A DNA stretch of 64,000 nucleotides from Laetmonice hystrix. Its lineage: Eukaryota. Position 1 is the stretch's first letter. Each line of letters opens with the position of its first letter. The notes under the pieces are model-generated. The model was given only the letters and a program-made list of their open reading frames with translations, was not told the DNA's origin and made no database searches. The position numbers were made by a program, and so were the translations under genes. The stretch lies in contig OZ249436.1 of assembly GCA_965235115.1 (NCBI GenBank), positions 25,856,001 through 25,920,000 of the forward strand, written 5' to 3'. Shown piece by piece: positions 1 to 49,889 of this stretch.

Positions 1-2096
1 CCATGACGTCAGAGGATATAGGTCAAAATAATGGACGTAAGGAAGAAGGGTCTATGGGAGATTATTATTCTATGAAAACTTTAAGAAACTATAGAATATG
101 GTTTGACGAAATGCCACTAAGTCTAAAATACAAATTACGTCCTGACGTCATGATGTGACGTCATATGACGTAATAGTTAGATGGGTCGATTCTCTCTGCC
201 ATGATGAATGTCCCTGCCAAGATTCATTTGGATATCTTTATAAATGACTGAGATAGATGCACAAATGCAAATTGGTTATATATCAATGACGTCATGATGA
301 CGTAAAACGTCACCCTATGTCATCGGTATTGGTGTCCTTTGATAGAGCATGTATGACTTACTATTAACTATATGGCTGCAATAGTAACCATCTGGTCTAT
401 CTGGCCCCCTTTAAGAGTTATAGCTCTTTAAAAAAATATTGGTTATAGGTCAATGATGTCATTATGACGTAATACGTCACCCTACGTCATCGATATTGGT
501 GTCAATGGAAAGAGCATGTATGACTTCCTATATGATCTCAATAGTAACCATGGCTCTATCTCGCTTCATTTTAGAGTTATAGCAATGTATATCTTGAATG
601 GTGAATTTTACCAACTTCAAGGTCACGTGGTACAGCGAAAATAGGTCAAATTGCTTATTCCATGCGGTTTTAAACAAAGCTCACTATAGAAGGCCTGGCT
701 ACCAAAAATTATCATATTTTCGCAAAAAATGGCAGAGGAGATACGATTTGAGCACTTTCGGACATGTGACCTACTTTCCCATGACATCAAAGGTCAAAGG
801 TCAAAATAAAGAAGAATAGTAAAAAGGGTCTATGCCCAATTACTAGGCTATGAAAAGTTGTGGGAAAGTATGGATTATTGCTTCAAGAAATGCCTATAAG
901 TCTAAAATGCAAAATACGTCATGACGTCATGACGTGACGTCGTATGACGAAATAATTACAGAGGTCGATTCTCTCTACCATGGTGAATGTCCCTGCCAAG
1001 TTTCATTTGGATATCTTTATCAATGACTGAGATACACGTGCAAATGCAACTACTCCAACTACGGGAATAATACGGAAGACGAAACCATACAACTTAGATG
1101 GATGGGATAATAATACGGAAGACGAAACCATACAATTTTAAGATCCCATCCCCCTATCGGGGGGATGGGATAACTAGACCTGTCGTGGATAAAACCACGA
1201 TGGATCCCATCCCTTGGGTGACATGATTTAATGAGGTCCGGATTATGACGTGTGATGTCACGATAGGTATTATGTCGTGGTGTTAATCAAAAGAACATGT
1301 GTATGACTGCCTATTTGTGTTGAATAGTAGCTATGGCTGTATCTTGGAAAGTTTATGACTAATAGTAAATGTAAATGACGTCATTGTCATATTATGATGT
1401 CACCCTACATCGTAAAGCTTGGTCTCAATTGAAAGAAAGTGCATGACTTCCTAGTAACCATAGTTATAGGCCCTAGAAAATATAGATGACGTCATTATCA
1501 TATGTCACACTACGTATAGTAGCCATGGCTCTATCTCCCACCGTTTAGGAGTTATAGGCCTTAGAAAATATTGATGACGTCATTATGACGTCATAAGTGA
1601 CGCTACGTCATTAAACTTGGCCTCAATTGAAAGAGCATCCATGACTTCTTATTTGTGTTCAATAGTTTAGGAGTTATAGCCCTGAGAAAAATACCTATGA
1701 CACCTTATCGATATTCTTCTGACGTCATAGGTCACGTGACCTAAAAAAATAATGGTGTCGAAGGAAAGAGCTATGACTTCATGTTAGTGTTAAGTAGGCC
1801 TAACTATGAATCTAAATCTATAAATCTTGGTGTCAATTGAAAGAGCATACAATATGGTTTCCAATTCCTGTTCAATAGTAACCATAGCTCCATCTTGCAC
1901 CGTTTACTAGTAATAGGCTTAAGAAAATAATGTTAACATCATTATAACTTTATACGTCATGCTCCTCCTTTCATGCAGGCACAGATCCAGCACTGAACGA
2001 AAGGAGGGGCACCAAAGGTGCGAGGTGAACGTTGGCGGGGGGGGGGGGGACTTGAATTTAGAAGGGAAAGAAAATGATAGATGTGAAGTTTCTTAA

Positions 2097-2623
2097 AGGG
2101 GCATATTATGAGGAAACGTGAAAAATCGGTATTTCAAAGAACTTTTGCTGTTTTCATAAAGAGATCCTTCATTAATATTGCTTGGTAAACAACAGACTTC
2201 TCAGTTTCAGTTTGTGTGAAAAATCGAAGTTTATGAAGCTTCCTTGCCCGCTTTTCTGCCGATTTCGTAAAATATTTTTTAGGTGGCATTCTGATGCCGG
2301 ACGATCGAGTGCAACTGCTGAATTGTTTACAACTAAGCGAAGCACGTGACTAAGCACATGCAGAGAGTGCACACGCAGGATGTGACACAGTATGCAATTA
2401 CACGGGTTAATGGGAGGTTGTCTATAGCAAATTATGGTGGGAGATGTGCTATCGGGAGAAATCTATAGGTTTGGTCGTATAGAATCTACTTGTGCTGCAT
2501 ACGCAGCGAAAACACGTCGGAGGACAAAATGCTGTGGTAGGATTATTTACTTGGATCCCTAGTACACGATCATGTTGGATAATTGCCGGAAATCCTCCAA
2601 AACGTGTTTCATAGCATGCCCCT
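2097..2623. mobile_element. Kolobok-like MITE
   Basis: TTAA TSD (2093-2096, 2624-2627); TIR AGGGGCATATTATGA / TCATAGCATGCCCCT; empty site in paralogous units near 18070 and 25560. Confidence 0.7.
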
Positions 2624-2710
2624 TTAAAGTATTTCAGGCGCGTGTCGGCAGGGGTCCGGGGTTTGGACCCCCTCCCCTGTTCCCCCAGAGCATAGATTCC
2701 TTTTCCCTTA

Positions 2711-3517
2711 TACTCTAGTCACACTAGAGGCGGAATGAGCCAGAATGCTGTCGGAATGAATATTCTTGGTATATTCCTGGATATTCAAAGCGCATTCTGA
2801 AAGTTCTGACTGCATTCTGTGTGCATTCCAAATATTCGGGCCCATTCTTGTGGCCGGCCCGAAGGTTTTGCTCATGCTCAAACATATCGACCTGCATTCT
2901 AAGTGTATTCTAATTGCACTCTGACTGCATTCTAAATATTCTTACGACATTCCAACAGCATTCGAAACATTCGGGTTGCATTCTTGGGAAAATCGAAACG
3001 GCAAGCCACTTCAAATCCTGCCAGAATGTTCCGAATGTGCCTCGAATAAGCTGGAATGCACCTTGAATGCGTCTCGATTGCTGCCGGAATCTATACTCGG
3101 GACATTCGTGTTACATTCTAAGTACATTCGAAGTGCATTCTAAGTATTCGAGCTACATTCTGTTTGAATTTTTGGAGGTTCGAACCATATTCAGCGGCCA
3201 TTCCGGGAGCGTTCTGACTGCATTTGAGGTGAATTCGTACAGCATTCGAGGCACCTTCCAACTAGACTTCGGGTGGTATTTGGGCAGCAATCGAACCGCA
3301 CTCGTCTGGCATTCGAGGTGCATTCTAAATATTCTGACTGCATTCTAACAGCATTCTAAATATTCCTACTGTGTTCCAACTACATTCGAGCTGCATTCGA
3401 GAGCAATTTTGGTCAATTTGAAATTCCCTCCCGAATGTGGCGCGAACTTTGAGAATTCTTCATTCCGGCTGGTTCTGCTTGATTCCTGCTGATTTCGAAT
3501 AAGTGTGACGGGGGTTT
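2711..3517. mobile_element. MITE, probably PIF/Harbinger-type, with GCATTC-rich interior
   Basis: Imperfect TIR ACTCTAGTCACACT / AGTGTGACGGGGGT in TTA/TAA context; absent from paralogs near 18155 and 25645. Confidence 0.55.
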
Positions 3518-5592
3518 AAAGATTCAATGAAACAACATCGAACAAACAGGTGCAAAGCATTCTGCCTATTTTAAACTGGTTGAGTGATGGATACACAAAA
3601 TATAATGCACTAAAAGGGTCCATAAAAGGCGGGAAAATCACGTCTAAGAGCTTCTAATGTAAAAACAAATTCCGAGACCACCCTGCTGAAAATCCTAGAC
3701 ACGTCGCTGTATTTAGACCTAGCCTAACAATAATATTTGTCAATTCTTCAAAAAGAAAGAGTGCAGATCCGCCCCTGACATGTCAAAAGAGATCATAGAG
3801 ATCTACTGCATGGTATATCTACCTATTTAGATATTTTAATCATTGTGGAAGGATACGTTATAATCGTAATTATATCTAGAGACTCTGATTGCCAAGCAAT
3901 ACAGGTAGGTCCCATTTCCCGAATGGTTTTCTATCATTACCTATATTTTTCTCTCATTTAATTATTGTCCCAACAAAAGCGTCATTTCCATTCACATGGA
4001 AGTTACTAAGTATCCTTTTGACATTATGAAATATTATAGTCCTGATGGATTATATGGATATATACCCGTTACGGGCATCATGTAAAATATGACAGACTCA
4101 AGAACAATAGGTGCGAATGTCATCCACACCAGGCTGTTGGCTCACGCTGAAACCAAGTGCAGCTGACCAAAAGTTTGTCGTGTCACTTGAACTCCACAAC
4201 CAACAATCAATAGTAGACTAGTGTTTTATTCAGCTCTCCTATATAAGATTCAAAAACAAATGCATTAGGCAGTTACACCTACAGTTCAAAGGCACAGCTA
4301 ATTCAGTTATGTCAGTTCTGAATACACAATCATATTCCTCCAACCAGACCCTGACTGGGAGGGAGGGAGGGGGGAGGCCGGCCGGCCGGCCCTTATCACC
4401 AGCATGCACTTACGTAACCCTCTGCCGACCATGGCCCTGGCTTCACAGCGGGTGATTAGTGTATTCAGAGATGCCACCTGTCAGAGTGTAAAAATATTAT
4501 TGTGAAGACTATACCCATTAAAACTTACAATTCTGGCCATATTACCTTTCCAAAACAAGAACTAAGCAGTCAGTGGTATACCTGAATCTATACACTTTGT
4601 AATTGTTGTATTTGTATATGGCTTAAACAGGTTTAAGGTAGAGCCTGTCAACGTCAGATTACATTATTTCATCATAAATAAAAAAGATATTGGTAAATTT
4701 ATGAAAAGAAATATGAAAAGTGACCAATCGTCAATAGCAGCACATATCTAGTGACCAAATACACGATTCCTATATAACTAAAGCAGTTTTAGAAAAAAAT
4801 GTCAAAAGTGACAAACTTTAAAGTCACGTGGTTCGGCGAAAATAGGTCAAATCGCTAATCCCTGCAATCATCTTGTGAACCTTTCGTTAGAGAGTCTTTC
4901 TGCTGAATATTGTCGAATTTTACCAAAAATAGAGAAGGAGAAGCAATTTAACCGATTTGTGACCAATGACCCAGTTCACCCTAAGGCCAAAGGTCAAAGG
5001 TCAAATCAAGGCTCAAATTGAGGCAGCACCTTTGGCCGATTATGAGGCCATGACGGGTTTTAAAAAAAAATTCCCAATATGAGCTTAAAAATGGCTTCAA
5101 TTTTCATAATACGTTTGACGTCATCACGTCATGACGTGACGTCACATGACGTTATGATTTGATGCCTGACCATACTTTCTCATTGTCAAGACGTGTGCCA
5201 AATTTCATTTAGATATTTTGAAAATTGACTGAGATAGACATACAAGTTTACTACTACTACTACTACTACTACTACTACAACTACGACGCCAAAAATAATA
5301 CAGACGACGAAACCACACAATTTCTAAATCCCATCCCCTCCGTAGGGGATGGGATAATAACTAGTCATGTCGTGGCAAGACCACAATGGATCCCATCCCC
5401 GGGGTGACATGTCCCTTCTGATATTGAGTTTGAGTAGAGTTACGTTCAAGGCAGACACTTACACATCTGTGATAGGCAGTGGTGTTTGTGAAGTGCCAGG
5501 TAAGGTGTCAAGTTATGGCTCTGAGAGAATATTGATGACATCCTTATGACGTCACAGTAACTATGGCTGTATCTTCAACCATTGACAAGTTA

Positions 5593-8500
5593 TGGCCCTG
5601 GGAAAATATAGGTGACATAAATATGACATTATAGGTCACGTGACCTACAAAATAAAGGTGGCAAAGGAAAGATCATATATAACTTTCTATATGTGTTCAA
5701 TAGTAATTATGTCTGTATCTTCAATGATTTACAACTTATAGCCCTGGGAAAATATTGGTGACCTTGTTATGACGTCATAGGTCAGTGACTTGAAAAATAT
5801 GGGTGCATAATGAAAGAGCATATATATATGACTTCCTATTAGTGTTTAATAGAAAATATAGCTGTATCTTCAACCATTTACAAGTTATGGCCCAGTGAAT
5901 ATATATGATGTCATAGGTCACGTGACATACAAAACAATGGTGCCAAATGAAAGACCATATATGACTTCCTATTCGTGTTCAATAGTAACTATGGCCCTAT
6001 CTGGCACCGTTTACCAGTTATAGCCCTAAGAAAATGTCAATGACATCCTTATGACGTCATAGGGCACGTGACCTGGAAAATGAAGGTGTGTAATGAAAGA
6101 CCATATATGACTTCCTATTCGTGTTCAATAGTAACTATGGCCATATCTGGCACCGTTTACAAGTTATAGCCCTGAGAACATATTGGCGACCTTGCTCTGA
6201 CGTCATACGTCACGTGACCTGGAAAATGAAGGTGTATAATGAAAGAGTACATATGATTTCCTATTAGTGTTTAATAGTAACTATGGCTCTATCTTTCACC
6301 ATTTACAAGTTATGGCCCTGGGAAAATATAGGTGACGTCGTTATGATGTCATAGGTCACGTGACTTACAAAATAATGGTGTCAAATAAAAGACCATATAT
6401 GACTTCCTATTCATGTTCAATAGTAACTATGGCCCTATCTGGCACCGTTTACAAGTTATACCCAGAAACATCTAAACTGTCTGCTGTTGAAAACTTTAAG
6501 GTCACGTGGTTCAGTATATATAGGTCAAATCGCTAATCCCTCTTTGTATGTTTTGAACCTTTCGATATAGAGTGGCAATGCCAGATATTGTCAAATTTTA
6601 CCAAGAAATGGGGATGGAGTAGCGATTCAACCCGATTCTGACCCAGGAGCCAGTTCTCTCTAAGGTCAAAGGTCAAATGAAGGGTCGACTTGAGACAGGA
6701 CCCTTGCCTGATTAAAACCCCGTAATGGATTTTGAAAATTTCGAATATGACCTTTAAAAAAATGGCCCCAATATGCAAGACACGTTTGACGTCATGACGT
6801 CATGACGTGACGTGTCGTGGCCCTGGGAAAATATAGGTGACATCAATATGACATTATAGGTCACGTGACCTACAAAATAAAGGTGGCAAAGGAAAGATCA
6901 TATATAACTTTCTATATGTGTTCAATAGTAATTATGTCTGTATCTTCAATGATTTACAACTTATAGCCCTGGGAAAATATTGGTGACCTTGTTATGACGT
7001 CATAGGTCAGTGACTTGAAAAATATGGGTGCATAATGAAAGAGCATATATGACTTCCTATTAGTGTTTAATAGAAAATATAGCTGTATCTTCAACCATTT
7101 ACAAGTTATGGCCCAGTGAATATATATGATGTCATAGGTCACGTGACATACAAAACAATGGTGCCAAATGAAAGACCATATATGACTTCCTATTCGTGTT
7201 CAATAGTAACTATGGCCCTATCTGGCACCGTTTACCAGTTATAGCCCTAAGAAAATGTCAATGACATCCTTATGACGTCATAGGGCACGTGACCTGGAAA
7301 ATGAAGGTGTATAATGAAAGACCATATATCACTTCCTATTCGTGTTCAATAGTAACTATGGCCATATCTGGCACCGTTTACAAGTTATAGCCCTGAGAAC
7401 ATATTGGCGACCTTGCTCTGACGTCATACGTCACGTGACCTGGAAAATGAAGGTGTATAATGAAAGAGTACATATGACTTCCTATTAGTGTTTAATAGTA
7501 ACTATGGCTCTATCTTTCACCATTTACAAGTTATGGCCCTGGGAAAATATAGGTGACGTCGTTATGATGTCATAGGTCACGTGACTTACAAAATAATGGT
7601 GTCAAATAAAAGACCATATATGACTTCCTATTCATGTTCAATAGTAACTATGGCCCTATCTGGCACCGTTTACAAGTTATACCCAGAAACATCTAAACTG
7701 TCTGCTGTTGAAAACTTTAAGGTCACGTGGTTCAGTAAATATAGGTCAAATCGCTAATCCCTCTTTGTATGTTTTGAACCTTTCGATATAGAGTGGCAAT
7801 GCCAGATATTGTCAAATTTTACCAAGAAATGGGGATGGAGTAGCGATTCAACCCGATTCTGACCCAGGAGCCAGTTCTCTCTAAGGTCAAAGGTCAAATG
7901 AAGGGTCGACTTGAGACAGGACTCTTGCCTGATTAAAACCCCGTAATGGATTTTGAAAATTTCGAATATGACCTTTAAAAAAATGGCCCCAATATGCAAG
8001 ACACGTTTGACGTCATGACGTCATGACGTGACGTGTCGTGGCCCTGGGAAAATATAGGTGACATCAATATGACATTATAGGTCACGTGACCTACAAAATA
8101 AAGGTGGCAAAGGAAAGATCATATATAACTTTCTATATGTGTTCAATAGTAATTATGTCTGTATCTTCAATGATTTACAACTTATAGCCCTGGGAAAATA
8201 TTGGTGACCTTGTTATGACGTCATAGGTCAGTGACTTGAAAAATATGGGTGCATAATGAAAGAGCATATATGACTTCCTATTAGTGTTTAATAGAAAATA
8301 TAGCTGTATCTTCAACCATTTACAAGTTATGGCCCAGTGAATATATATGATGTCATAGGTCACGTGACATACAAAACAATGGTGCCAAATGAAAGACCAT
8401 ATATGACTTCCTATTCGTGTTCAATAGTAACTATGGCCCTATCTGGCAACGTTTACCAGTTATAGCCCTAAGAAAATGTCAATGACATCCTTATGACGTC

Positions 8501-9252
8501 ATAGGGCACGTGACCTGGAAAATGAAGGTGTATAATGAAAGACCATATATGACTTCCTATTCGTGTTCAATAGTAACTATGGCCATATCTGGCACCGTTT
8601 ACAAGTTATAGCCCTGAGAACATATTGGCGACCTTGCTCTGACGTCATACGTCACGTGACCTGGAAAATGAAGGTGTATAATGAAAGAGTACATATGACT
8701 TCCTATTAGTGTTTAATAGTAACTATGGCTCTATCTTTCACCATTTACAAGTTATGGCCCTGGGAAAATATAGGTGACGTCGTTATGATGTCATAGGTCA
8801 CGTGACTTACAAAATAATGGTGTCAAATAAAAGACCATATATGACTTCCTATTCATGTTCAATAGTAACTATGGCCCTATCTGGCACCGTTTACAAGTTA
8901 TACCCAGAAACATCTAAACTGTCTGCTGTTGAAAACTTTAAGGTCACGTGGTTCAGTAAATATAGGTCAAATCGCTAATCCCTCTTTGTATGTTTTGAAC
9001 CTTTCGATATAGAGTGGCAATGCCAGATATTGTCAAATTTTACCAAGAAATGGGGATGGAGTAGCGATTCAACCCGATTCTGACCCAGGAGCCAGTTCTC
9101 TCTAAGGTCAAAGGTCAAATGAAGGGTCGACTTGAGACAGGACCCTTGCCTGATTAAAATCCCGTAATGGATTTTGAAAATTTCGAATATGACCTTTAAA
9201 AAAATGGCCCCAATATGCAAGACACGTTTGACGTCATGACGTGACGTGTCGT
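5593..9252. repeat. Three near-identical tandem copies of a ~1221-bp unit (higher-order repeat)
   Basis: Unit starts TGGCCCTGGGAAAATATAGG at 5593, 6818, 8039; near-identical spurious ORFs at 6533/7754/8975 and identical ones at 6954/8175, spaced 1221 bp. Confidence 0.95.
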
Positions 9253-11183
9253 GACGTCATGATTGATTGTGTGACCTGACTTTGTCATGGTCAAGATCTG
9301 AGCCAAGTTTGATTGAGATATCTTGAAAACTGACTGAGATAGACGCACTGTTTACTACTACGACTACAACGCAAAGAACTAGTCATGTCGTGGCAAGACT
9401 ACGATGGATCCCATCCCCGGGGTGACATGTCCTTTCTGATATTGAGTTTGAGTAGAGTTACGTTCAAGGCAGACACTTGCCGACACATCTGTGATAGGCA
9501 GTGGTGTTTGGAAAGTGCCAGGTAAGGTGTCAAGTTATGGCCCTGAGAGAATATTTATGACATCCTTATGACGTCATAGTAACTATAGCTGCATCTTCAA
9601 CCATTTACAAGTTATAGCCCAGGGAATATATAGGTGACCTCCTTATGACGTCATAGGTCACGTGACGTACAAAACAATGGTGTAAAATGAAATACCATAT
9701 ATGACTTCCTATTCGTGTTCAATAGTAACTATGGCCCTATCTGGCACCGTTTACAAGTTATAGCCCTGCGAAAATATTGGCGACCTTGCTATGACGTCAT
9801 AGGTTACGTGACTGGAAAATTATTTGTGCATAATGAAAGAGCATGTATATATGACTTCATATTACGGTTTACTAGTAACTATGGCTCAATCTTCAACTAT
9901 TTAAAAGTTATAGCCCGGAAAAATGCCAATGACATTCTTATGACGTCACAGGTCACGTGAACTGGAAAATGAAAGTGTATAATGAAAGAGCATATATGAC
10001 TTCTTATTCATGTTTAATAGTAATTATGGCTCTATCTTCAACGATTTACAAGTTATAGCCCCCAGAAAATATTGGTGACCTTGTTATGACGTCATAGGTC
10101 ACGTGACATGAAAAATTATGTTGACAAACAAAACAGCATATATATATGACTTCCTATTAGTGTTTAATAGTAACTATGGCTCTATCTTCAACCATTTACA
10201 AGTTATAACCCTGGCAAAATGCAGGTGACCTCCTTCTGACGTCATAGGTCACGTGACCCAAAAAATAATGGTGTCAAATGAAAGACCATATATATGACTT
10301 CCTATTCGTGTTCAATAGTAACTATGGACCTATCTGGCACCGTTTACAAGTTATAGCCCTTGGAAAATATTGGCGACCTTGCTCTGACGTCATAGGTCAC
10401 GTGACCTGGAAAATGAAGGTGTATAACGAAAGAGTATATATGACTTCCTATCAGTGTTTAATAGTAACTATGGCTCTATCTTCAACCATTTACAAGTTAT
10501 GGCCCTGGGAAAATATAGGTGACGTCGTTATGACGTCATAGGTCACGTGACCTACAAAATAATGGTGTCAAATGAAAGACCATATATGACTTCCTATTCA
10601 TGTTCAATAGTAACTATGGCCCTATCTGGCATCGTTTACAAGTTATACCCATAAATATCTAAACTGACCGCTGTTGAAAACTTTAAGGTCACGTGGTTGA
10701 GTAAATATAGGTCAAATCGCTAATCCCTCTTTGTATGTTTTTAACCTTTCGATGTAGAGCGGTACTGCCAGATATTGTCAAATTTTTCCAAGAAATGGGG
10801 AAGGGGTAGCGATCCAACCCGATTCTGACCCAGTAGCCAGTTCTCCTTCAGGTCAAAGGTCAAAGGTCAAATGAAGGGTCAACTTGAGACAGGACCCTTG
10901 CCTGATTAAAACGCCATGATGGGTTTTGAAAATTTCGAATATGACTTTAAAAAAATGGTCCCAATGTGCAAGACACGTTAGACGTCATGACGTGATGATG
11001 TGACGTGACGTCACGTCATGATTGATTGTGTGACCTGACTTTGTCATGGTCATGATCTGAGCCAAGTTTGATTGAGATATCTTGAAAAATGACTGAGATA
11101 GAAAACGAAATGTTTACTACTACTACTACTACAGCGCAAAGAACTAGTCATGTCGTGGCGAGACCACGATGGATCCCATCCCC

Positions 11184-11758
11184 AGGCATCTTGAGTTGTC
11201 AAGGGGCATCGCGCATCCTGCATTCTACCCCTTGAGTGCAGCCTATGCTAACCGGGCGGAAGTTGACCCTGAGGTCAACCTTATGAATATTAATAGGACC
11301 TGTCATCGGCGCTCCACCTGCACTAACGGTCCCACCGAAGGCTTACTTCTCGCAAAAATGCCTGATAGCCTTGCACAGGTCGCTGATAAACAAATGTGTC
11401 GCTCCCTAACAATACAGTTAGTTATAGTGTGTGTCCTTGCAGCCCTGTCAACTCAAAGTTGTTCCTCTCACTGTCACTATAGTGTCAGGATTAAATGCCT
11501 ACCCGTTGCTGCTATCGTTGGCTTCGCCATTGCTTCGACAACAATAACTTTACCGTGGGAACGTTCCCATTGGCTAACCAGAAATGCACTCTAATTTTTA
11601 TGAATCGCGCCACAGGCAGTGCTCCAATCTCATGGCGCGGCCGCAGACGGGGAAACACGTGGCGCTGCGAGGAACGCGTTTCTAAGAATAGACGGGCAGG
11701 CGGGAGGGGGATGAATCAACTGCAAGTGCAAAGGTTCAACCCCGAGCGGGGGAGGATG
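11184..11758. mobile_element. Unclassified ~575-bp insertion in a HINE sub-TIR
   Basis: Splits GGATCCCATCCCC|GGGGTGACATG (intact at 5388 and 9406); ATCCCC duplicated at 11178-11183 and 11759-11764. Confidence 0.75.
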
Positions 11759-13756: not shown

Positions 13757-13824
13757 GCACTGGTGGGATTCGAACCGTGGATCTCCTGATGAGAAGTCTG
13801 CGTCTCTGCCCATTCGGCCACGCT
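13757..13824 (-). other. tRNA-derived (SINE-head-like) sequence with Pol III A and B boxes
   Basis: Minus strand GCGTGGCCGAATGGGCAGAGACGCAGACTTCTCATCAGGAGATCCACGGTTCGAATCCCACCAGTGC; A box TGGCCGAATGG, B box GGTTCGAATCC; stems degenerate. Confidence 0.55.
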
Positions 13825-16566: not shown

Positions 16567-16756
16567 TAAACTTTCTGCTTCTCACAACGTCAATTGTCAA
16601 TTCTCAAAGTTAATCGTCGTACAGAACTAGCCAGTTTTTCCTTGGGGAAATGTTATCATTTACATATTTTAATATAAATTTGTCTTTCCATTGGGCCCAG
16701 ATAGGCCTATCCACGTGTATTCCACGAGAAAATACACCAATCATTTCCACGTGTAC

Positions 16757-36577: not shown

Positions 36578-36610
<33 letters not shown>

Positions 36611-37349: not shown

Positions 37350-37837
37350 TGTAACGTGTTAAACGTGTTTTTAAAATAAAGTCTCACTACATGGCACAAC
37401 AGTTACCACTGGCCAACTTAACCGGACTCTCGACGGCCAGTGGAAATAGCAGCAGTCGACTCAGTGAGTGTTGAACCGAGAGTAACTTTATTCCTCCCCA
37501 AACTTTACCCATATACATCGTCTACATAGTATGGGCGTGTCCCGCCCGTGCGCATGCGTGGGGATTCATGGCACGGAGGGGGAGAGCCCGCCCCTCCTTA
37601 TAAGGCAAGGGGCGTGTCCACACGAGATGCACGGAGGCAACCTCATCCCTTCGTGAAATGTTTACTGCAATGGATAGTACATACCCTAATATATGCTACA
37701 CACAACGGAATATATGAAGAACCTAAATAAGGGGGTTATACCTTACATAAGTATGTATAAAGCAAATCTAAATAAAGCGATTATACCTTACATAACAATA
37801 TATGAAGTAAATCTAAATAAAGTGATTATACTTTACA
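37350..37837 (-). repeat. 3' LTR
   Basis: TGTAACG...CTTTACA, 488 bp; purine-rich tract AAGAGCGTGTGGGG immediately upstream on the minus strand. Confidence 0.95.
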
Positions 37838-37885
37838 TAACCCCACACGCTCTTTGTTAAAAACTCGCTTTTTAACACAGTAGGG

Positions 37886-39565
37886 CTACGTAGTTGTTTT
37901 AGATGTGGAAAGAATCGAGGACGGAATCCTCAGTACCGCCACGGATTTCGGCGGGGTTTCATCAGCTTCACCTAATGAAGACTTCTCAATCTCCCCGTGG
38001 AAACAATACTTCTTCTTAAAGTACAATACAAGAGTAATTATGATTCCGATCATGACAACCAACATTAGAATTAAGGGGGCAGGGTACAACTTTGTATGGT
38101 GGATAGTTGACAATGTTGGCAAAGGCTTCATAATGAGAGTTTGTTTGGGATCCAGGATAAGTTCATCATGAATCTTAAGAGTGTGCTTAATCTCATTATA
38201 CTGAACGGGCGTGAGAGAAGGGGGATTCCATCGTATTGGTATGTGTACAGTCAGCGGAATCTTCAATATGTGGTTAGAAACCGGTAGGGTGCGACCTACT
38301 CTCCAGACGACTACACAACGTTCCTTAGCGGTAATCAACGACGGGTTACATATCAGATGCACCGTATACGTCACATCAGGACAGTGAACTGTAATGTTTG
38401 TACAAGTCGTGATACTAACTAGCCACGTATCATTACCTAAAAACTTACTCACGATATGTGTGGCAGAACGGCTAACTTTATATTTACACGTAGGGTTGTC
38501 GCCTTTGATAATAGAAAGTTCACAATCGTCTACACTAGTCTGTGATACTTCACAAATACCCAATGAATGTCCACGGCAAGTCTGTGGCTCATACTGAGCA
38601 GTCAAGGTAGTGTCAGTTAAGATAGTAGACTGGGTAATGTACTTAGCCTTCAGGTCGCGATACGTAAACCACTGTGGCTGGAGTAACCACTGAGTGTACT
38701 CCGTTCTGGTAGACATCCACACAGAAACGACACATACAAGCGTGTCTGACTCGTCCCACATGACCTCCACTGGGGAATACGCGCGGTGCCAGGTCGCCGG
38801 CATGACCCACCCTACACGTGCCATCCGTAACAGTATCTTACCCAGCTGGTCATCGTCCAGTACATCACGGGCTAAATGCCCGTGGCGTAATGCTTTCATT
38901 GCTCTCCTGTACTGCTGGTTGCGAACCTGAGTCACGGCATGAATTGTTTCCAGTTGCTCCATCATATCGAGAGCTTGATGTAGAGCGTTATATGAATCAA
39001 GAGTCCTTTTGATTAACACAACTTGTTGCTCTGTCAGATTGACAAAATTGAAAAGGCTAACAATATCCTCATGGTTAATTTCGGCTTGGGCGCGCGTTGC
39101 ATTCAAGACAGTCACCATTTCTTTCTGGTTATGAAATAAAACATCTTGGCGTAAAACTGCTTCGTGAATTTGATCTCTTAAAGCGTCCACTTGATGTTCT
39201 GTTGCGGTTCCAAATAATTTAGATGAAAGTTCACCAATAATGTTCAACAGACCTCGCTTTGATCGTGCTGGAGTTGATAGCTGTTGTAGATGCTCATAAT
39301 GGGACCATAGAAGGCGGAGACGGAACCGGAGTGACTGTAAATTCCTGGCTGGGAGCTTTACAGCAGACAGACGCAGACCAGCCAAGACTGCGTCAATCCA
39401 TGATAACATTGGTGGTATTTCCGGTGGTTGTAGAGTAACAATAACCGTCCAGCGGTCAGTTAAAATCCATGCTCTCGCTTCACGGGCCAACAATACTCCA
39501 TTTGGTACTTCGGTTACTTGACCTGAACTTATCGCAAAAAGTGGTAGTATGCAAAGGAATAGCAT
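37886..39565 (-). CDS. env: Envelope glycoprotein, errantivirus/baculovirus F-like class I fusion protein (559 aa from MLFLCILP)
   Basis: Signal peptide MLFLCILPLFAISSG; furin site RSKR followed by fusion peptide GLLNIIGELSSKLFGTA; heptad-repeat region; Cys-rich ectodomain; TM LILMLVVMIGIIITLVLYF then KKK; located between integrase and 3' LTR. Confidence 0.88.
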   Translation of the reverse strand: MLFLCILPLFAISSGQVTEVPNGVLLAREARAWILTDRWTVIVTLQPPEIPPMLSWIDAVLAGLRLSAVKLPARNLQSLRFRLRLLWSHYEHLQQLSTPARSKRGLLNIIGELSSKLFGTATEHQVDALRDQIHEAVLRQDVLFHNQKEMVTVLNATRAQAEINHEDIVSLFNFVNLTEQQVVLIKRTLDSYNALHQALDMMEQLETIHAVTQVRNQQYRRAMKALRHGHLARDVLDDDQLGKILLRMARVGWVMPATWHRAYSPVEVMWDESDTLVCVVSVWMSTRTEYTQWLLQPQWFTYRDLKAKYITQSTILTDTTLTAQYEPQTCRGHSLGICEVSQTSVDDCELSIIKGDNPTCKYKVSRSATHIVSKFLGNDTWLVSITTCTNITVHCPDVTYTVHLICNPSLITAKERCVVVWRVGRTLPVSNHILKIPLTVHIPIRWNPPSLTPVQYNEIKHTLKIHDELILDPKQTLIMKPLPTLSTIHHTKLYPAPLILMLVVMIGIIITLVLYFKKKYCFHGEIEKSSLGEADETPPKSVAVLRIPSSILSTSKTTT

Positions 39566-39842
39566 CCTTCTAGGTGTGGTGGGAACTTCTCCAGTAGACA
39601 GAGTTAATACGTTGTTTGTATGAGTGTGAGGGGTCATCTGAATTCCTAGCTTCCAGCAGTCGCCTTTTAGATCTGGTCGCACGCCATGGCGGGGATGTTT
39701 GCCAGTCCATATGTTCCTCAGGCAGGGAAATGTCCGTTTTACGTCTGCGTGTGTCAGGAGAACCATCAGGGGAGGCATCTGGAAACGTTCTTTTGTGTAT
39801 GTTTATATTTGATCGGGGCATACGGTCAATACGTCGGCGCCG

Positions 39843-42800
39843 TCAAGGAGGACTGTGGACATCAACATCTTGAACTCGTCGACGCCGTGACATATGGGGT
39901 TCAACATCAGGGGTGCCAGCCGTGACAGCTGTATCAACCGTGCCCTTCCTACCAAGGTTTGCAGGTGGTAGCCATCGTGGTGGTCGCGAAGATCGTTTCA
40001 CACGGGGCTTGACCATAGACCAATCATCTATTGCGGCCGGCAATACCTTGTCACGATTGACAACACGTTTATGTCCGGTACGTTGGTCTTCTAATGAAAT
40101 TACAGACCCTCTCACCTGGGTGACAATGTACGTGTGATCCCACCTCGGATCAAGGGGGGCATGTTCACTCACTTTAATAACGGCCTTGTCTCCAACTGCT
40201 AGCGGTGGTGCATTAGCTCGGGACTGAAGACGAGCAGTGTTGAACCTGCGTGATTCTTTAGTCTCCATGGCAGCTTTCCGAAAAACCGATACTAGATGGC
40301 TGTAAGGTAACATGGCATCAGTCTCTACATCATATAACGGATGTGCAGGTACATCAGGTTCCCGACCATACTGCAAGAAGTATGGAGTAAATCCATTGAC
40401 GGATGGTGTAATGCGGTAGGCCCATAGAGCAGAGCCTAATTCTTCCTCCCAACTTTCGAATCTGGTGTTTGTCAGTTTACTCAGGATTGTTTTGATTGTA
40501 CGGTGTGCCCTTTCTAACCGACCATTTGTTTGGGGGTGATATGGGGTCGTACTGCGGTGATCAACTTGAAGGAAATGTAAATAATCCTTGAGGTCTCGTC
40601 CTTGAAACTCCATCCCACGGTCAGTGATCAAGACCTTGGGTATGCCAAACCTTGGGATGTAATCATTCTTGAGGTGATGGAGAACGTACTGTTGACTTTT
40701 CTGTGGTATGGGATACGCCTCGATCCAAGCAGTGGCATGATCCATGACTGTTAGTAAATAACGATTGCCATGCGGGGATGCAGAGAAAGGTTCTACCAGG
40801 TCAGCTGCAGCAATGTCTCCTGGTAAAATGGCTAATGGCATATCCGTGGGTGGGGGATAATGTATCCTGTCACTGTGAACACAACACAAGGGGCATGATT
40901 TGTAGAGATCGGTAGAGGTCTGCCACATGGCAGGCCATTTGTAGTGCTCCTGTAATTGCTTTAACACCTTCCTTGTACCGGCATGACCCAAACGTTCGTG
41001 ATAAGTGATCCACAGTTTGGACCTTACTGAGCTCGGTACCCACAGCCTAGGGTAATCAATGTCACGTCTAGCTGGTCGTGTTGTACACAGAAATCCCTCC
41101 AACATGGTCCACCCATTACCACTTGGCGTGCCTGAACCAAACTCCTTCATTTGTTCTTGTCTGACCGTAATGGGATCCAGACCATCAAGCTTCAACCTGC
41201 CACAATAATAGTCATCAGACGGTGCATTTGCCATTACCGGCAACGGGGACCACATAGTTTCAGAGTCTCTGTTTGTTTGAAGGCCAGGGAGACGCGATAA
41301 CATATCAGCACGTTGGTTGCACTCACCCTTAATGTACTTGATGGGAGCACCATATTCGGCAATAAGCATGGCCCAACGCTGCACCTTTGTATTGTTCACC
41401 TCGCCTAAGAACATAGCTTTTGAAAGGTTTGTGGTCAGTGAAGATTTCAAAGTCAGCTCCATAAAGATAGGGACGTAACATTTTTAATGCATGGACAATT
41501 GCGTATGCCTCCCGTTCCATAGCAGGCCATAGTCTTTGCGTTTTGTTGAGAACATGGCTCACAAATTGGACAGGTCTAGGGTTGTCAGCCTCATCCCTTT
41601 GCACTAAAATCGCACCCACAGCATTGGCAGAGCTGTCCGTATACAGTTAAAATGGTTTACCCATGTCCGGGTGATGCTGGACAACTTTGTCTGAACATAA
41701 CACTGTTCTAAGATAATCAAAGGCGTCCTGATGTGTATCAGTCCAGCGCCAAGCAGCATGTTTGCGGGTCAAGTCTGATAATTTTGAAGCATACTCTGCA
41801 TAACGAGGTATCATACTCCTATGAAACCCGACCATTCCAAGGAAACGTCTTACACTTTTAATATCCGTAGGAGGTTGCATGTCCCTAATAGCACTCACTT
41901 TCCCAGCCTGGGGGCGAACTCCGGTGCCGTCTATGGCAAATCCAAGCAATTTGATACTCCTCGCATGAAACACGCATTTATCAGCTTTAATTGTGAAACC
42001 CGCTGAAGTTAACAAGCGCAATACCTCACGTACATGTTTTTTGTGTTCCTGCTCCGTTTTTGAGTAAACACAGATATCGTCCAAATAGACCATTGCGAAA
42101 TAACCAATAGCAGGCCTAAGAACATTGTTCATACACCTTTGGAAGGTAGCTGGTGCAGTCTTTAAACCAAAGGGCATTCGCATGTATTCATATAATCCCT
42201 CATGGGTACAAAACGCAGTTACAGAAATACTGTCTGGATGTACGGGTAGCTGATGGAATCCATTTTTTAGGTCCAAAAGAGAGAAATATGAACACCCTCC
42301 AACACTATCTAACACATCCGAGACACGCGGGAGTGGATGAGCATCATGAACAATTTTTTTGTTTAATTGTCGATAGTCAATGCACATGCGTGTACTCCCA
42401 TCTTTCTTTGGGACCAGAGTTACAGGAGAGGCCCAGGGCGACGTTGATGGACGAATTATTCCTTGTGCTAACAATTCCCTTACCTGACTTTCAATCTCCT
42501 TACGTTTCCTTAAAGGAGTACGGTATGGTCGCTGACGGATAGGGATATGGTCCTCACCAATGTCAACACCATCTGAACATCAGGGTTACATCCAATAGGG
42601 TTTCCGTCTTGCCCAAACAGTGAAGGAAATTCTTTTAACCAATAATCACTCCAAGTATGCAGCTCACTTACAGAGCGTCCTGACATAACTCCTATGCTGC
42701 GGTGACAGTGATCATTAATGTACACACAGTTGTTTTTTAAGTCAATCCGGGCTCCCAGTGCGCGCAAAGCATCATCACCCAAAATCATGGACTCCTTCAA

Positions 42801-43058
42801 CATAATGCTCGTTATGTACACCCTCAGTAGAGTTCCATAGACGGTAATTTCCCCTTTTCCGACTATGGGAATGTTATTTCCGGTAACACCCTGAAGTTGC
42901 TCTGAGGACTTCACACAGTTAGGGCACCTTAAGTCAGAACAATAGTGTTTCCAGGCCTCTAAAGAAATAACTGTGCGTGCCGCTCCTGTGTCTACCAGGG
43001 CAGGTATCCGCTCCCTCCCCACTGGGAGTTCGATACACAGCCTGGTGTCACTTAGTTT
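39843..43058 (-). pseudogene. pol: pol (protease, RT, RNase H, integrase) with two frameshifts and one premature stop
   Basis: LVDTGA; SPWASP, RMCIDYRQLN, MPFGLKTAP, YLDD; LYTDSS, EREAYAI, FTDHKP; HHCC and D-D-E. Breaks near 42565, 41647 (TAA) and 41420. Confidence 0.92.
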
Positions 43059-43061
43059 TTT
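43055..43061 (-). promoter_or_regulatory. -1 ribosomal frameshift slippery heptamer A AAA AAC at the gag/pol junction
   Basis: GCA AAA AAC TAA ends gag; the -1 frame is open through LSDTRLCIELPVGRERIPALVDTGA. Confidence 0.8.
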
Positions 43062-43669
43062 GCATTATTGTTTTTCTTGCCCTGACGCTTCTCATCATCC
43101 TTAATTTTCTTATGGCACTCGCGTTTGTAATGGCCAGCTTTACGGCAGTAGTAGCAAATGACTTGGTTACCTGTGGGCTGTTGTCCTGTCAGCACGTTCT
43201 TCAAATCCGACAGCTGAGCTGCCATGTCAGCCATTGCCGTGAAGATATCCTTCGAATTAATATCAGTTGCCCGCCCTGAAGCTGAAGTCATGGCTCCTAT
43301 CTCCATGGGCTCTTCTATTCTCAGTGGAGGGCGCAGCCAGGCGCTACGTGCGTCGGCCTGTAGGGCGGCTTGGAAAGCTTCCTCGGGGGTTGTTGGATTA
43401 GCATCCGCTGTACAATAACGGACACGCTCATTTGCCAAACCGTTAATAAAGACCTTGATGATGTGACGTATGATCTTCCGTCCTGTCAGATCCTCTTCTG
43501 AATAGGCTCTGTTCATTCTAATCTTGAACTGTGCGACGTATTCACACACAGGCTGGTAACTTGCCTGGCGGTAGGTGTCGACTTCCTTTACACTGCGATC
43601 CTCTTCCTCCCCCGATACACACTGCCCCCTGATATGTGTTAGCAAACCAGCCAGGGTTGGACCTGCTGG

Positions 43670-45106
43670 CAGGGGCGCCGCTGCCTATTTCGAAGTGGGG
43701 GGACAATCTTGGTGTGTTTGACCTCCCCCCCCCGAGATTTATGTACCATAAGAATTGCAAAATAACAGTGTATTCACCCCCCCCCCAAGGGGCGGACCCA
43801 GGATTTTCTTTGCGGGGGGTTGGGGGTGTCAGAAGGTGCCACGCGCAGAAAGGGGGGGGGGCTCCGACTTTGGGAATATAAAAGGCCATCGGTGCTATTT
43901 CCCGGCTTCTCAGCATCAAAAGAGCTTTTGGTGCCGACCTTTTGCTCAAGATTAATGTATTAATCAGGGGGCTTGCCCCCCTTAGATCCTCCTTTTTTGT
44001 ATGAAGATGTATTATTAGTACCTACAGTTACAATGAAATCATGCCGAGCGTAGCGAGGCAAAAAAATTTTTTTAGGTGGGCCCCACCTGGCCGTTGACAT
44101 CACAAAAAACAGTATCAAGCAATATTTATCAGAAGCCATAAAAGTTGACGATTAGGCCTAAAACACACTTTTACCAAATAAAATAGAGACCGTCCCCATC
44201 CTACTTGCCACTTTCTATTCTACCACACTAGGTCTAGTATAATTGGTAAACCTCACTCATTATTTCAATACATTCACGCATGAGGTCTTTTTCTTCAAAA
44301 TCAAATAGAAAGGCCCAACATGGGGGTGAAAAATGTTGACGGCCGCAGGCCTAACGCTGTCAGACAATAATTAAAGCGTGGCCTAGATTTCCTAGAGCTT
44401 AAGATTGACCTGAATATTCAGGTCTATGAGCTAAGCAAGAGACGGTATGGCAGATCCAGCTTTTTCAAGTAGGGGAGGCAACGTTTTTAGGGACGCAACC
44501 GGTGTGACTGTACGAGCGCCGAAGGCACACAGCTTTGCTTGGGGGTCCGGGGGCATGCCCCCCCCCGAAATTTTTAAATTCAAGGTGTAATTTGGTGAAA
44601 TCTGATGCATTTTGGAGCACAAAGCTATTTAAAGACCAATGATGTCAAAAGTCTTATGTAGCCTACAATGCCGTGAGGCGCCATGAACGGCAGGAGGGGC
44701 GCCATGAAATATATATATTTTAGGGGGGTCCAGACCCTATGTTACCCCCTACCGTGGATCCGCCAGTGTGGTAGGACTAAGGTAGGCCTACACAGGGAAG
44801 CTGCAGGGGATCTAGGCCGCGGTTAGGCCCATATTAATTATAGAACAGCAAAGCATAGACCTATCTCCTAAACACATGACATAGGCTTAGGCCTGCGAAG
44901 GCCAAGATTAAAAATGATGAAAATCTATCTTTAATTTGCTCCCATGGGAAATTCACCTTAAAAAGCTAGGCATAGGGAGTATAAAAAGACCTGTAGATCT
45001 ATCTATTAGGCCTGCTTCAACTTCAAGGAGCCTTTGACCTTTTTAGGTCGCCAGCAAAAGTGGGGGGGACATGTCCACCCCATCCCCCCCGGCAGCGGCG
45101 CCCCTG
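43670..45106. mobile_element. Non-autonomous TIR element inserted in gag
   Basis: 16-bp TIR CAGGGGCGCCGCTGCC / GGCAGCGGCGCCCCTG; 6-bp TSD TGCTGG; contains further MITE-like fragments. Confidence 0.88.
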
Positions 45107-45413
45107 TGCTGGGGTATATGTATCGATAGCTTGCACAAGACTCCCTGATGTTTGGGAAGCCAATTCTTCTCGCGCCTCCTGTGGAGTCAGGCCATCCACA
45201 AAGCGAAAGGCAAGTTCGGCCCGTTCGAGCCACAGCCGTAAACTTGACTGGTTGACGCCATCACATGGGGTAACATCCTTCATGTTCGAACTGTTGTGGT
45301 GTAAGTTCAGCGTTTGCCATTTTCAGAGATGTGGTTTTCTTTTCTTCTTATACCATACGTATATTTTCCAGGGTATTGAATTCGTGCCACTGGGTCCGAT
45401 TGTTAAATAATCG

Positions 45414-45432
45414 GCCCCACATTAGGGCGCCA
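45414..45432 (-). promoter_or_regulatory. Primer-binding site, tRNA-Lys(CTT)-like
   Basis: TGGCGCCCTAATGTGGGGC, 2 nt after the 5' LTR; canonical Lys PBS is TGGCGCCCAACGTGGGGC. Confidence 0.75.
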
Positions 45433-45434
45433 AA

Positions 45435-45922
45435 TGTAACGTGTTAAACGTGTTTTTAAAATAAAGTCTCACTACATGGCACAACAGTTACCACTGGCCA
45501 ACTTAACCGGACTCTCGACGGCCAGTGGAAATAGCAGCAGTCGACTCAGTGAGTGTTGAACCGAGAGTAACTTTATTCCTCCCCAAACTTTACCCATATA
45601 CATCATCTACATAGTATGGGCGTGTCCCGCCCGTGCGCATGCGTGGGGATTCATGGCACGGAGGGGGAGAGCCCGCCCCTCCTTATAAGGCAAGGGGCGT
45701 GTCCACACGAGATGCACGGAGGCAACCTCATCCCTTCGTGAAATGTTTACTGCAATGGATAGTACATACCCTAATATATGCTACACACAACGGAATATAT
45801 GAAGAACCTAAATAAGGGGGTTATACCTTACATAAGTATGTATAAGGCAAATCTAAATAAAGCGATTATACCTTACATAACAATATATGAAGTAAATCTA
45901 AATAAAGTGATTATACTTTACA
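45435..45922 (-). repeat. 5' LTR
   Basis: 488 bp; only two substitutions seen against 37350-37837. Confidence 0.95.
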
Positions 45923-48900
45923 CATGGTATGCTAAAAATAGTGCACAACCCTTAGTCTGATCCCGCCATGGAGATTCCCTGGTATCAATTTGGGCTCGAT
46001 TTGTCAAAAATTGTTGGAGGAGAGGCGAATTAGTCACATTTTGAGCTGTGACCTAGATTTCAAGAAGGTCAAAGGTCAGAGGTCAAATTGATGAATAAAA
46101 TTATTCCCTCTCAAGTGGCAAGCTAAGTGCTATGAATGAATTTTCTCTAACTGATCATGGGACTGGTACAATGAGGCACAATGAGGTACTTCCCAAAACA
46201 CCAAATTACGTCATGACGTCACGTCATATGACGTAAATCTTGGTGTCATTTGAAAGAGCATCTATGAGTTCCTATTCGTGCTCAATAGTAACTATGACCC
46301 TATCTAGCACAGTTTAAGAGTTATAGGCCTCTGAAAATGCCAATGACGTCATTATGACGCTATACGTCACATGACGTCATAAATCTTGGTGTCAATTGAA
46401 AGAGCATATGACTTCCTATTCATGTTCAATAGTAACCATGGCTCTATTTTAGATCGTTTCAGAGTTACAGCCATTTATTTCTCAAAAATGGCTATGACCC
46501 AAATTCAATGTCACATGCCATTTCTCTAGTTTCAAAGTTTAGCACCAGGTCGCAGCACGCCTCGGCAATATCCCGGGTCAGGGCCTGCCACATATCGCCA
46601 TGTGGTAGGAAGGGGGTCCCCGATATGCTAGTCCCAATATGCGGCAGGTAGGGGGTTCCTCATATTTAATAGGCCTATTGAGTGAGGAAGTTCTAGTCCC
46701 AATAGATATGGGGAAGGTAGGGGGTCCCTGATATTTAGCCGACATATTGATATGTGACCATCCCTGGCCCAGATATTCTCAATTAAATACAATACAATAT
46801 GTTTATTCACAACCTCGATGGAGGCAAAAGAACAGGGTCAGGGATAGTATAGTATAGTAGCACTGCTCACTCCATCTGCCGCCGCCAGGGCCTGGCCCCC
46901 TAACGTGAGTACAGTGTATAGTCGAGATGTGCTGCTACCTGGTGTCAAACTTCGCCCCTCCCCCCACGGTTGATTGTGTGCTAATGAGATGGGATTTCAT
47001 TTCTCACTCCGACGCTCACTCAAGTTGAGTACTCAAATTTCACTCAGATCGACCGTCTGAGTGTAAGAGAAACGCATTTTACTCAAATTCCACTCAAATA
47101 TGGCTTGAGTGGAATTTGAGTGGATTTGACTGTAAAGTAAGAAAAACCGGGCCCTGGTGTCAAACTTCGCCCCCCCCCCCCACAGTTGATTGTGTGCTAA
47201 CGAGATGGGATTTCATTTCTCACTCTAGCCATTTCCTTAGCCAAAACGCAGCCATACTTTTTCAAACGTTACACACAAGGAGCTAAAATGTTTAATCTAT
47301 ACATCGACTTTCAAAGCAAAAGTCTACATTAAATATTTACAAAGACAGGCATCAGTAGCAATTCAAAGCAGTAGTAGCAGCAAGCAGAACGTGATAGCTC
47401 CTGAGAAGAGTCTATGCTTGATGTGCGACAGGTCTGGCGATCTATTCCCCATTAAGTCATTTGCTGTTTTCGTTTTGATGGTTTTTTTTCGACTGAATTG
47501 GAAAAATATTATGTTTCTCCCCTTGACAATTGCCAGTCATTTGGCTACAGATAATTTACAGCTATATTTCACGTTTAATGACGAAATATGCAGCATATAC
47601 GCCACTGTCTGCAGTGTCACTGTCAGTGTGGACTTACTATGGAGTATGGTATGGAGAACGCCATTGGATTTAACTGAGATTCGTTAGTAAATAGCTTCGG
47701 TCTTCACATGGCGAGTTCCATTCCGAGACTTGGAATCTTCTCTTCAAAGTTGCCTGACATTGAGCTAAATATGTCCCTGAAGTACTCCCCTATTTATAGA
47801 TAGAAACATTAGATACTTATTTATACAGAGGCCGGTCGGCTCAGTGTCTGCAGTCGGCCCCTTCCAGCAGACAACGAGCGGTGACCCGACGACACTCACG
47901 AAAGAGGTTTCTAGGTCACTCGATCAGTGGTCAAATTGCCTGTCTCTCTTCACGACCTTCTCTTATATAATTGATCTCCCTGTTGTTAATTATATATTTA
48001 ATCAATTGAAATTTATAATATCTTAAAGTAGACAGTTTAAAGTCCACACCGTGTAAATATTAAAATGCTGAGCTTATTGTTCCGTAGTTGAGAAGTGCCC
48101 CAAAGTAAAGAAGAGATCACGTTGCAGATGACGTTGCAGATGACGTCACAGGTCACGTGGCACCAAAAATATGGTACCTAATTAAAGTAGACATAAACCT
48201 TTATAAGGTTCATTTAAAAATATGGCTCTATCTCAAATCGTTCATGAGTTACAGCACAAAATCTTCCAAATGACCCAAGTCAAGCTCAAGTTCAAAACTT
48301 TCAGGTCACGTGGTTCAGCGAAAATAGGTCAAATCGCTTATCCGGTTCTGGAATCTGGTTGAGCTGTCCCTAGAGAGTGCCTGTGCGACATATTATCAAG
48401 ATTTATCCAAAAAATGGGAAGAAGTAATGATTAAACCGATTTGCGAGCTAGGGACCAGGTCTGTCTAAGTTCAAAGGTCAAAGGTCAAATGAAGGGTCAG
48501 ACTTATGCAGCACCCTTGCCCGACTAAAACACCTTGACGAGTTTTGGAAATTCCCAAGATGAGGTTCAAAAATGGGCTAAATGTACAAAACACGTTTCAC
48601 GTCATGACGTCATGACGTGACGTTACGTGACGTCATGACGCACCATGAGATCAGAGTTTGTCATCGTCAAGACGTAGCCCAAGTTTCATTGAGATATCTT
48701 GAAAAATGACTGAGATATACTTATAGGTTTACGACTACTACGACTACTACTACAGGCATAAAAATAAGGAAGACGAAACCAGACAATTTCAAGATCCCTT
48801 CCCCTATCGGGGGAAGGGATAATAATAATAATAGGGAAGACGAAACCAGACAATTTCAAGATCCCATCCCCTGACGGGGGATGGGATAATAATACAGAAG

Positions 48901-49889
48901 ACGAAACCACACAATTTGAAAATCCCATCCTCTCCGTAGGGGATGGGAAATACAGAAACCGAAACCAGACAATTTCTAGATCCCATCCCCTTGATAGGGG
49001 ATGGGATAACTAGACCTGTCGTGGATAAAACCACGATGGATCCCATCCCTTGGGGGACATGTCCCTATGACTTATTAGTGAGGTCCTGATTATGACGTGT
49101 GATGTCTCGATACGTATTATGTTGTGGTGTTAATCAAAAGAACATGTCTATGTCTGCCTATTCGTGTTGAATAGTAGCTATGGCTGTATCTTGGAAGGTT
49201 TATGACTAATAGTAAATGTAAATGACGTTATTGTCATATTATGATGTCACCTTACATCGTAAAGCTTGGTGTCAATAATTATTGAAAGAAAGTGCATGAC
49301 TTCCTAGCTCAATAGTAGCCATAGCTGATCTTGCACCGTTTTTGAGTTATAGGCCATAGAAGATAGTAATGACGTCATTATGACGTCATACGATGATATG
49401 TCACGCTACCGGTGGAAGGGGAAGGGGTCACACTACCCCCCCCCCCTCAACTTGGCATGTATTCGCCCCTACCCCAAGTCACATCTTGGCGAAAGCTTTG
49501 TGCCCGCCTCCTACGGCCTAGCAGGCCTAACGGTCACATCCACCCCCTTCTACAGGACATGGGAGAGGGGTCACAAAAGTTTCAAGGGGCCACAATTAGG
49601 GGAAGGGGTCACACTACCCCCCTCCACTTGGCATGTATTCGCCCCTACCCCAAGTCACATCTTGGCGAAAGCTTTGTGCCCACCTCCTACGGCCTACCAG
49701 GCCTAACGGTCACATCCACCCCCTTCTACAGGACATGGGAGAGGGGTCACAAAAGTATCAAGGGGGCACAATTAGGGGAAGGGGTCACACTACCCCCCTC
49801 AACTTGACATGTATTTTGCTCCAACAGTCCACTGCCCGGCCGCCGCCCGGTGTAGCAATGCCAAACTGAATTTTCTTTTCAGATTGATC

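Follow-up and report, generated by a model that had tools for sequence, protein, structure and literature searches.

The window (the whole 64-kb stretch of DNA that was analysed) was inspected in full and consists of animal-like repeat DNA. Within positions 1-49010 there are ten non-autonomous units of the Helentron type (HINEs), which represent five or more subfamilies and lie on the minus strand throughout. Along that strand a unit opens with a 5' hairpin module of about 58 bp (the head), followed by a (TTA)n tract and a (GTA)n microsatellite; next come a conserved core and 146-bp tandem repeats, and the unit closes with a 3' subTIR, a small stem-loop and a terminal CTAG. In the list below P, V, W, X and Y denote body subfamilies, and Q, Y' and R denote head types; all these labels were coined in the analysis.

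1..1107, minus strand: unit E0, subfamily P; 3' end upstream of the window, own head at 1066-1107 with collapsed hairpin
1109..1171, minus strand: surplus P-type head; either P nested in P or a local duplicate
1173..5355, minus strand: unit E1, a chimera of a V-type 3' end with a Y-type body and head (5294-5355); later insertion at 2711-3519
5360..9377, minus strand: headless body X1; internal triplication of a 1221-bp segment (5598-9260), copies 99.3-99.5% identical
9378..11142, minus strand: headless body X2, the cleanest copy, with 3' end, 146-bp repeats, core and TAC microsatellite
11143..17764, minus strand: headless body X3, interrupted by 11184-11758 (6-bp TSD) and 13134-17729 (TIR element)
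17765..19512, minus strand: unit E5, Y subfamily; complete, own head
19523..22274, minus strand: unit E6, P subfamily; complete, own head, with about 1 kb of non-HINE DNA at 20007-20999
22275..22305, minus strand: surplus Q-type head truncated by a deletion; equal to the head at 48836 at 25 of 25 bases
22306..24477, minus strand: unit E7, Y subfamily; own head, 3' end gone in the deletion that cut the Q-type head at 22275..22305
24479..36681, minus strand: unit E8, Y subfamily; complete, with insertions at about 24830-25214 (TTAA TSD) and 26557-35765 (LINE nest, TSD of at least 12 bp)
36682..36749, minus strand: surplus Y'-type head; 3 of 56 positions differ from its neighbour, one variant in common with 48897
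36754..48820, minus strand: unit E9, W subfamily; own head, containing an LTR element (37350-45922) and non-HINE DNA (46517-47999)
48821..48887, minus strand: surplus Q-type head in a four-head stack
48888..48949, minus strand: surplus Y'-type head; 8 mismatches and 2 gaps relative to its neighbour
48950..49007, minus strand: surplus R-type head; 11 of 56 positions differ from its neighbour
49009..49410, minus strand: V-subfamily 3' end of the following unit, adjoining the four-head stack
55409..59308, plus strand: opposite-orientation relatives outside the array, as fragments (55409-55785, 57977-58239 and 58928-59308)

The coordinates of units, junctions and modules in the initial annotation all hold, and so does its claim of an array in one orientation, which is shared by all nine ACTAG ends and all thirteen modules of 1-49010. 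Ten units lying one way correspond to p = 0.002 if they are independent, and BLAST of the bodies revealed no reverse copy in 1-49010 except self-palindromes. The heads lie at 1075 (degenerate) and 1118, at 22221 and 22284 (partial), at 36629 and 36697, and at 48769, 48836, 48897 and 48955, with single ones at 5303, 19460 and 24425. Ten of these had been taken as extra modules; six are truly surplus (1118, 22284, 36697, 48836, 48897 and 48955) and the other four are the resident unit's own, so that seven of the thirteen heads belong to the adjoining body. The module at 22284, described as partial, is present as a deletion product, and the same deletion took the 3' end of the next unit. Three bodies were also said to run straight into the next ACTAG end without a hairpin terminus. 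This is confirmed at 9378, 11143 and 17765, where the ACTAG end directly follows CGCAAAGA with no hairpin module between. The three are X1, X2 and X3, all of subfamily X; headlessness is thus found in three of three X bodies and in none of the seven others (p = 0.008).

The abutment of units that had been described is seen once later insertions are set aside, but it is not literal, because HINE DNA makes up 21,871 of the 49,010 bp (45% of the span). The remaining 27 kb are inserted DNA. Over half of the block is other transposons, which are later arrivals; clear target duplications were found for three of six insertions tested (570 bp, 390 bp and 9.2 kb). All eleven long ORFs of 1-49010 sit inside inserted elements. 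Rep/Hel is absent from the ten that were scanned among the twelve ORFs of at least 200 aa in the window; these ten yielded DDE, RT, RNase H, EN or integrase matches, or no match.

The inserted elements are diverse. In E9, an LTR retroelement (37350-45922) has 488-bp LTRs that are 99.6% identical, with RT and integrase frames; its coding region lies in separate frames, is interrupted near 43.7-45.1 kb, and includes in the env position a 638-aa frame (37886-39802) with no Pfam match. A TIR element at 13134-17729, at the edge of X3's microsatellite, has the ends CCCAGCGGGCAC and internal arrays of 108-bp and 80-bp repeats, and encloses a 490-aa DDE_3 frame (14570-16042). The 9.2-kb insertion in E8 (26557-35765; target duplication of at least 12 bp) is composed of a LINE with EN, RT and RNase H frames and a TIR element at about 26590-28872. 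The 390-bp insertion at 24834-25219, flanked by a TTAA duplication, is 84% identical in reverse to 33913-34253, which lies in the LINE between its first and second frames. A 575-bp insertion (11184-11758) with a 6-bp target duplication and no clear terminal repeats is placed exactly within the 3' subTIR of X3.

Beyond the array, a 176-bp tandem repeat interrupts the last HINE unit and forms two blocks (49417-49815 and 52550-55002, with 96% matches in the longer one); the DNA between them includes an RT fragment that ends in an A-rich tail. At 60209-61762, a 776-bp element is duplicated head-to-tail (95.8% identical). A long inverted repeat with a short spacer (63578-63679 and 63754-63817) was seen by eye.

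The identification of the units as HINEs in the initial annotation is supported by their structure. The 5' subTIR and its inner inverted repeat form a hairpin in all four heads folded (z -3.8 to -5.6); across eleven heads 95.5% of 132 cells are paired, and two of the twelve pairs are compensated. A 3' subTIR, inverted relative to the 5' one, is found 30-44 bp from the end at all nine array ends. The 3' stem-loop is weak, with 5-6 bp stems in the four ends folded (z -0.1 to -2.7). (TAC)n adjoins the head position in ten of ten bodies, and the 146-bp central repeats are present. Near the head, body identity is 58-85% between subfamilies and 88-96% within a subfamily. The W 3' end carries the same subTIR variant as the W head: in E9, a compensated A-to-T change is common to the 3' subTIR and the unit's own head. 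Matching of heads to bodies through the subTIR extensions succeeded for W only.

With respect to class, the canonical Helitron (HLE1) has no terminal or subterminal inverted repeats, whereas subTIRs are found here at both ends; the definitions of HLE1 and HLE2 by ends, targets and inverted repeats are those given in PMC11417382. Two junction registers fit the data, TATC...CTAGT in T^T (as in HLE2) and TC...CTAG in A^T (as in HLE1), the register being hidden by the 3-bp repeat. On structure, the units are best classed as HINEs, that is, as non-autonomous elements of the HLE2/Helentron type. No empty insertion site was seen, and pattern scans of metagenome, viral and prokaryote contigs for an autonomous partner or further copies gave zero matches.

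The nine visible 3' junctions all end in AA|CTAG, six of them after a head followed by one to four TAA units and three after an X body. Likewise, each of the six surplus heads is preceded by the previous head and a piece of tract. Without exception, then, the visible 3' ends are situated, in a single orientation, within the (TTA)n tract of a 5' module, and the proposed polar insertion at an AAT/TT tract inside or beside a resident 5' end holds at nine of nine junctions. Terminal tracts account for 23 of the 94 AATAA sites in HINE DNA (both strands). The corresponding probability is 0.245^9 = 3e-6 for nine events or 5e-5 for seven, on the assumption of independence and for a block that was itself ascertained by abutment. 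At the visible junctions the subfamilies on the two sides are different (P|V, Y|X, X|Y, Y|P, Y'|W and R|V). A rolling-circle concatemer of one monomer was therefore rejected, considering also that there are at least five subfamilies at 58-96% identity and that the spacers are variable.

Most of the surplus heads do not appear to be local duplicates, as judged from their alignment: four of the six either do not resemble the adjacent head or are nearer to one farther away. For those at 48897 and 48955 the differences from the adjacent head are listed above, and the one at 48836 shows 5 differences in 55 positions, which include a compensated arm and the loop. The deletion-cut head at 22284 matches the head at 48836, 26 kb away, at all 25 bases, as against 22 of 25 for its own neighbour. 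The other two are ambiguous. The head at 1118 has 6 mismatches and 1 gap in 34 positions relative to its neighbour and could be a local duplicate; that at 36697 has only the 3 differences in 56, yet the variant that it has in common with 48897 is missing from the four attached Y heads. Slippage as a general source of the stacks was rejected on the strength of the four heads that fail it.

No intact X copy is present in the window. The reads examined for this subfamily came from three runs of a single sample, in which 0.39-0.44 of the words are present, and the mapped segment (8915-9575) represents 661 of the 49,010 bases. In each run, the X junction of one contig is longer by one AAT (depth 3700, 1990 and 4100 within 8915-9575), against summed depths at the junction of 19745, 13013 and 9981. 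It follows that X continues into an AAT tract in other copies and that a second insertion register is in use; the reads thus support the view that X natively runs into an AAT tract. X-next-to-X junctions are common in the reads. The depth of the X-junction contigs is about 40-140 times that of the low-depth contigs listed, and, contig depth not being a copy number, the depth of the AAT-extended junction might correspond to tens of loci. From the reads on 8915-9575, 18 loose ends (of 376) and 24 pieces (of 3036) were inspected, and these contain no head of X's own; none of the 18 loose ends is located at the junction. The copies X1-X3 are about 92% identical to one another and form a mosaic along their length; on account of this level of identity, assembly collapse of the three was rejected.

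The block was probably formed by nested insertion, in which the target tract is split by every arrival yet stays usable. A trans-acting RepHel transposase would join new copies into TTA^TT without target duplication. The first insertion in a resident's tract would sever the head from the body, and the remaining tract, now between the newcomer's head and the old head, would receive further insertions. The expected outcome is a series of head-to-tail units with stacks of unlike heads, and the polarity would be imposed by the strand-specific target. Headless bodies would be immobile unless transposition started at an upstream head and read through a 3' end, by analogy with Helraiser, an HLE1 element reported (PMC4778049) to have an essential left end, whose deletion abolishes transposition, and a right end that can be bypassed. 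Since then the nest has been enlarged and partly scrambled by unequal exchange, by deletion and by unrelated transposons amounting to about 27 kb. The W-type 3' end at 58239 (plus strand) adjoins no head; not every insertion was therefore nested.

A more elaborate version of this scheme is doubtful. According to it, the resident 5' hairpin (or homology within the same subfamily) might guide the transposase to the adjoining TTA tract, the tract might lengthen with each arrival, and headless bodies might be re-mobilised by read-through from upstream. If this were true, polar blocks would be self-extending and the stacked heads would constitute a readable chronology of insertions genome-wide.

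The initial annotation had proposed that the stacks record insertion order. Once X1, X2 and X3 have opened, the closing surplus heads follow in the order Q, Y', Q, Y', R. If the pairing is strictly last-in-first-out, X3 goes with Q, X2 with Y' and X1 with Q, and two heads are left for hosts upstream of the window (three, if 1118 also belongs to a host outside the window). Under this pairing X1 and X3 agree both in head type and in a tract of 22 letters. For this agreement the counts are 88 of 900 permutations and 6 of 30 orderings, jointly about 0.02 in a post hoc calculation. Both Q heads are identical where comparable, and X1 and X3 have 96% identity next to the head (last 170 columns), as against 88-90% for the other pairs. 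On the other side, strict nesting gives X2 a head type different from that of X1 and X3 despite 92% body identity, and the rebuilt tracts contain 6-7 AAT units versus 1-3 in intact units. Since the rebuilt tracts are longer than the intact ones, either tracts grow or the tract of X is longer. A longer native X tract would explain both the long rebuilt tracts and the restriction of headlessness to X, which is not predicted by family-blind targeting. There are also signs of later reshuffling: the chimeric E1 (V 3' end on a Y body), the 1221-bp triplication in X1, the X1-X3 mosaic, and the deletion at 22306 that removed a junction. The shared head type and tract of X1 and X3 thus speak for the proposed record, while the post hoc nature of the comparison, the need for outside hosts and the reshuffling limit it. 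The pairing of heads and bodies in last-in-first-out order is weakly supported, and the bracket order of the nest may be taken as a usable but imperfect record, altered by unequal exchange and deletions.

The order of the heads would carry no local information if the stacks had mostly been built elsewhere and had arrived as multi-headed composites that start at the outer head, as in the FoHeli model, with headless X being multiplied by unequal exchange; nesting would still be real. FoHelis with several 5' termini are indeed described as moving as units (PMC5148889). Both Q heads come after related P and W heads, the X|X junctions are multi-copy in reads, and the X1-X3 mosaic, the X1 triplication and the E1 chimera are in keeping with such a history. 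However, Q heads that came as passengers would leave the three X hosts with uneven tracts (31 or more, 16 and 6 letters), compared with 22, 19 or more, and 22 under strict nesting, and any duplication must be old, as the X copies differ by about 8%. Composites are considered unlikely as the main source.

The fact that all three X copies stop at the same base and that X alone is headless would be accounted for if X were a mobile subfamily without a hairpin head, which starts at T^TCTTTG and inserts at, or launches from, the 3' CTAGT end of a neighbour (the 'borrowed origin' of the initial annotation); the junction is compatible with T^T and the X|X junction is abundant. Such a subfamily is quite improbable, because six surplus heads would then have no bodies, a tract belonging to X would itself lead one to expect the AAT-extended junction, X retains a 3' subTIR matching the head hairpin, and loss of the left end abolishes transposition in Helraiser (an HLE1 element, and hence an analogy only; PMC4778049). 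Even less credence is given to the idea that surplus heads are local slippage duplicates and headless bodies are deletions, or that the assembly is collapsed or misjoined. The resemblance of 1118 and 36697 to their neighbours (6 mismatches and 1 gap in 34, and 3 of 56) and the identity of over 99% among the triplicated X1 segments are in line with it. In contrast, 8-11 sites separate 48897 and 48955 from the heads next to them, 22284 agrees with the head 26 kb away at 25 of 25 bases and with the adjacent head at 22 of 25, deletion at the same base three times over is unlikely, and the junction variant is present in read contigs. It is very improbable on these grounds. Nested insertion into a reusable tract is thus retained as the preferred explanation.

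Two of its components have each been published already, namely self-insertion that leaves 5' ends stacked and insertion of fixed polarity into a short repeat, and the advance is a moderate one. A fixed internal target with both host halves kept would provide natural empty-site data and a relative dating of subfamilies, as well as a route for head swapping between them, and polar repeat blocks could grow without concatemers or target duplications. In the titles and abstract openings covered, no description was found of a HINE for which the repeat tract in its own 5' region serves as a reusable target. The papers covered likewise include no biochemical test of target choice or origin end in HLE2/Helentron elements.

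The layout of the units is known from the non-autonomous Helentrons designated HINE or DINE-1 in mites and Drosophila (Thomas, Vadnagara & Pritham 2014, PMC4067079) and from Cg_HINE of the oyster Crassostrea gigas (PMC7492417). According to the portions of these accounts available, the common features are a 5' subTIR with an inner inverted repeat, a microsatellite, satellite-like central repeats, a 3' subTIR, a stem-loop, the lack of coding capacity, a T-rich target and a variable flank length. The present elements differ in that TC...CTAG in an AT site is an alternative reading of their ends and that the target, a TTA repeat, lies within the 5' region of the element itself. In the same portions there is no description of nests that are polar and made up of several subfamilies.

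Among Helitron2-type elements, FoHeli1/2 of Fusarium oxysporum (Chellapan et al. 2016, PMC5148889) are reported to have short (<200 bp) stacked 5' termini that are put down to self-insertion, and one copy of FoHeli4 is inserted 2 bp from another. The FoHeli target is given as TNAT^T in a figure legend of that paper and as TNAT^A in its text; the former matches TTAT^T here, and the type of ends is also the same. Headless hosts and long nests are not shown in the parts of that paper available, while here both halves are in place, at least five subfamilies are involved, and the site is a repeat tract. HelenXT233 of Xenopus tropicalis (Li et al. 2024, PMC11417382) is described as an animal HLE2 that has two dissimilar left ends arranged as direct repeats, each of them characteristic of a subfamily, and maize Helitrons are reported to insert near one another, nesting accounting for multiple termini (PMC3288121). 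In contrast to the present block, the two ends of HelenXT233 are on one element and those in maize are mostly 3' ends, and no fixed internal target is described for either in the available text.

A parallel to the polarity is found in the telomere-targeting Helitrons of Paramecium, whose insertion into one strand of the telomeric repeats is reported to produce polar arrays (PMC13085455). Both systems share insertion into one particular strand of a short repeat, and with it absolute polarity and long arrays. Double insertion at a preserved target has also been described, the surviving target inviting more insertions (McGurk & Barbash, bioRxiv 10.1101/158386). As far as these two accounts extend, however, the targets there are telomeric repeats of the host or sites regenerated by TSDs, whereas the target here is borne by the element itself and survives as a split tract.
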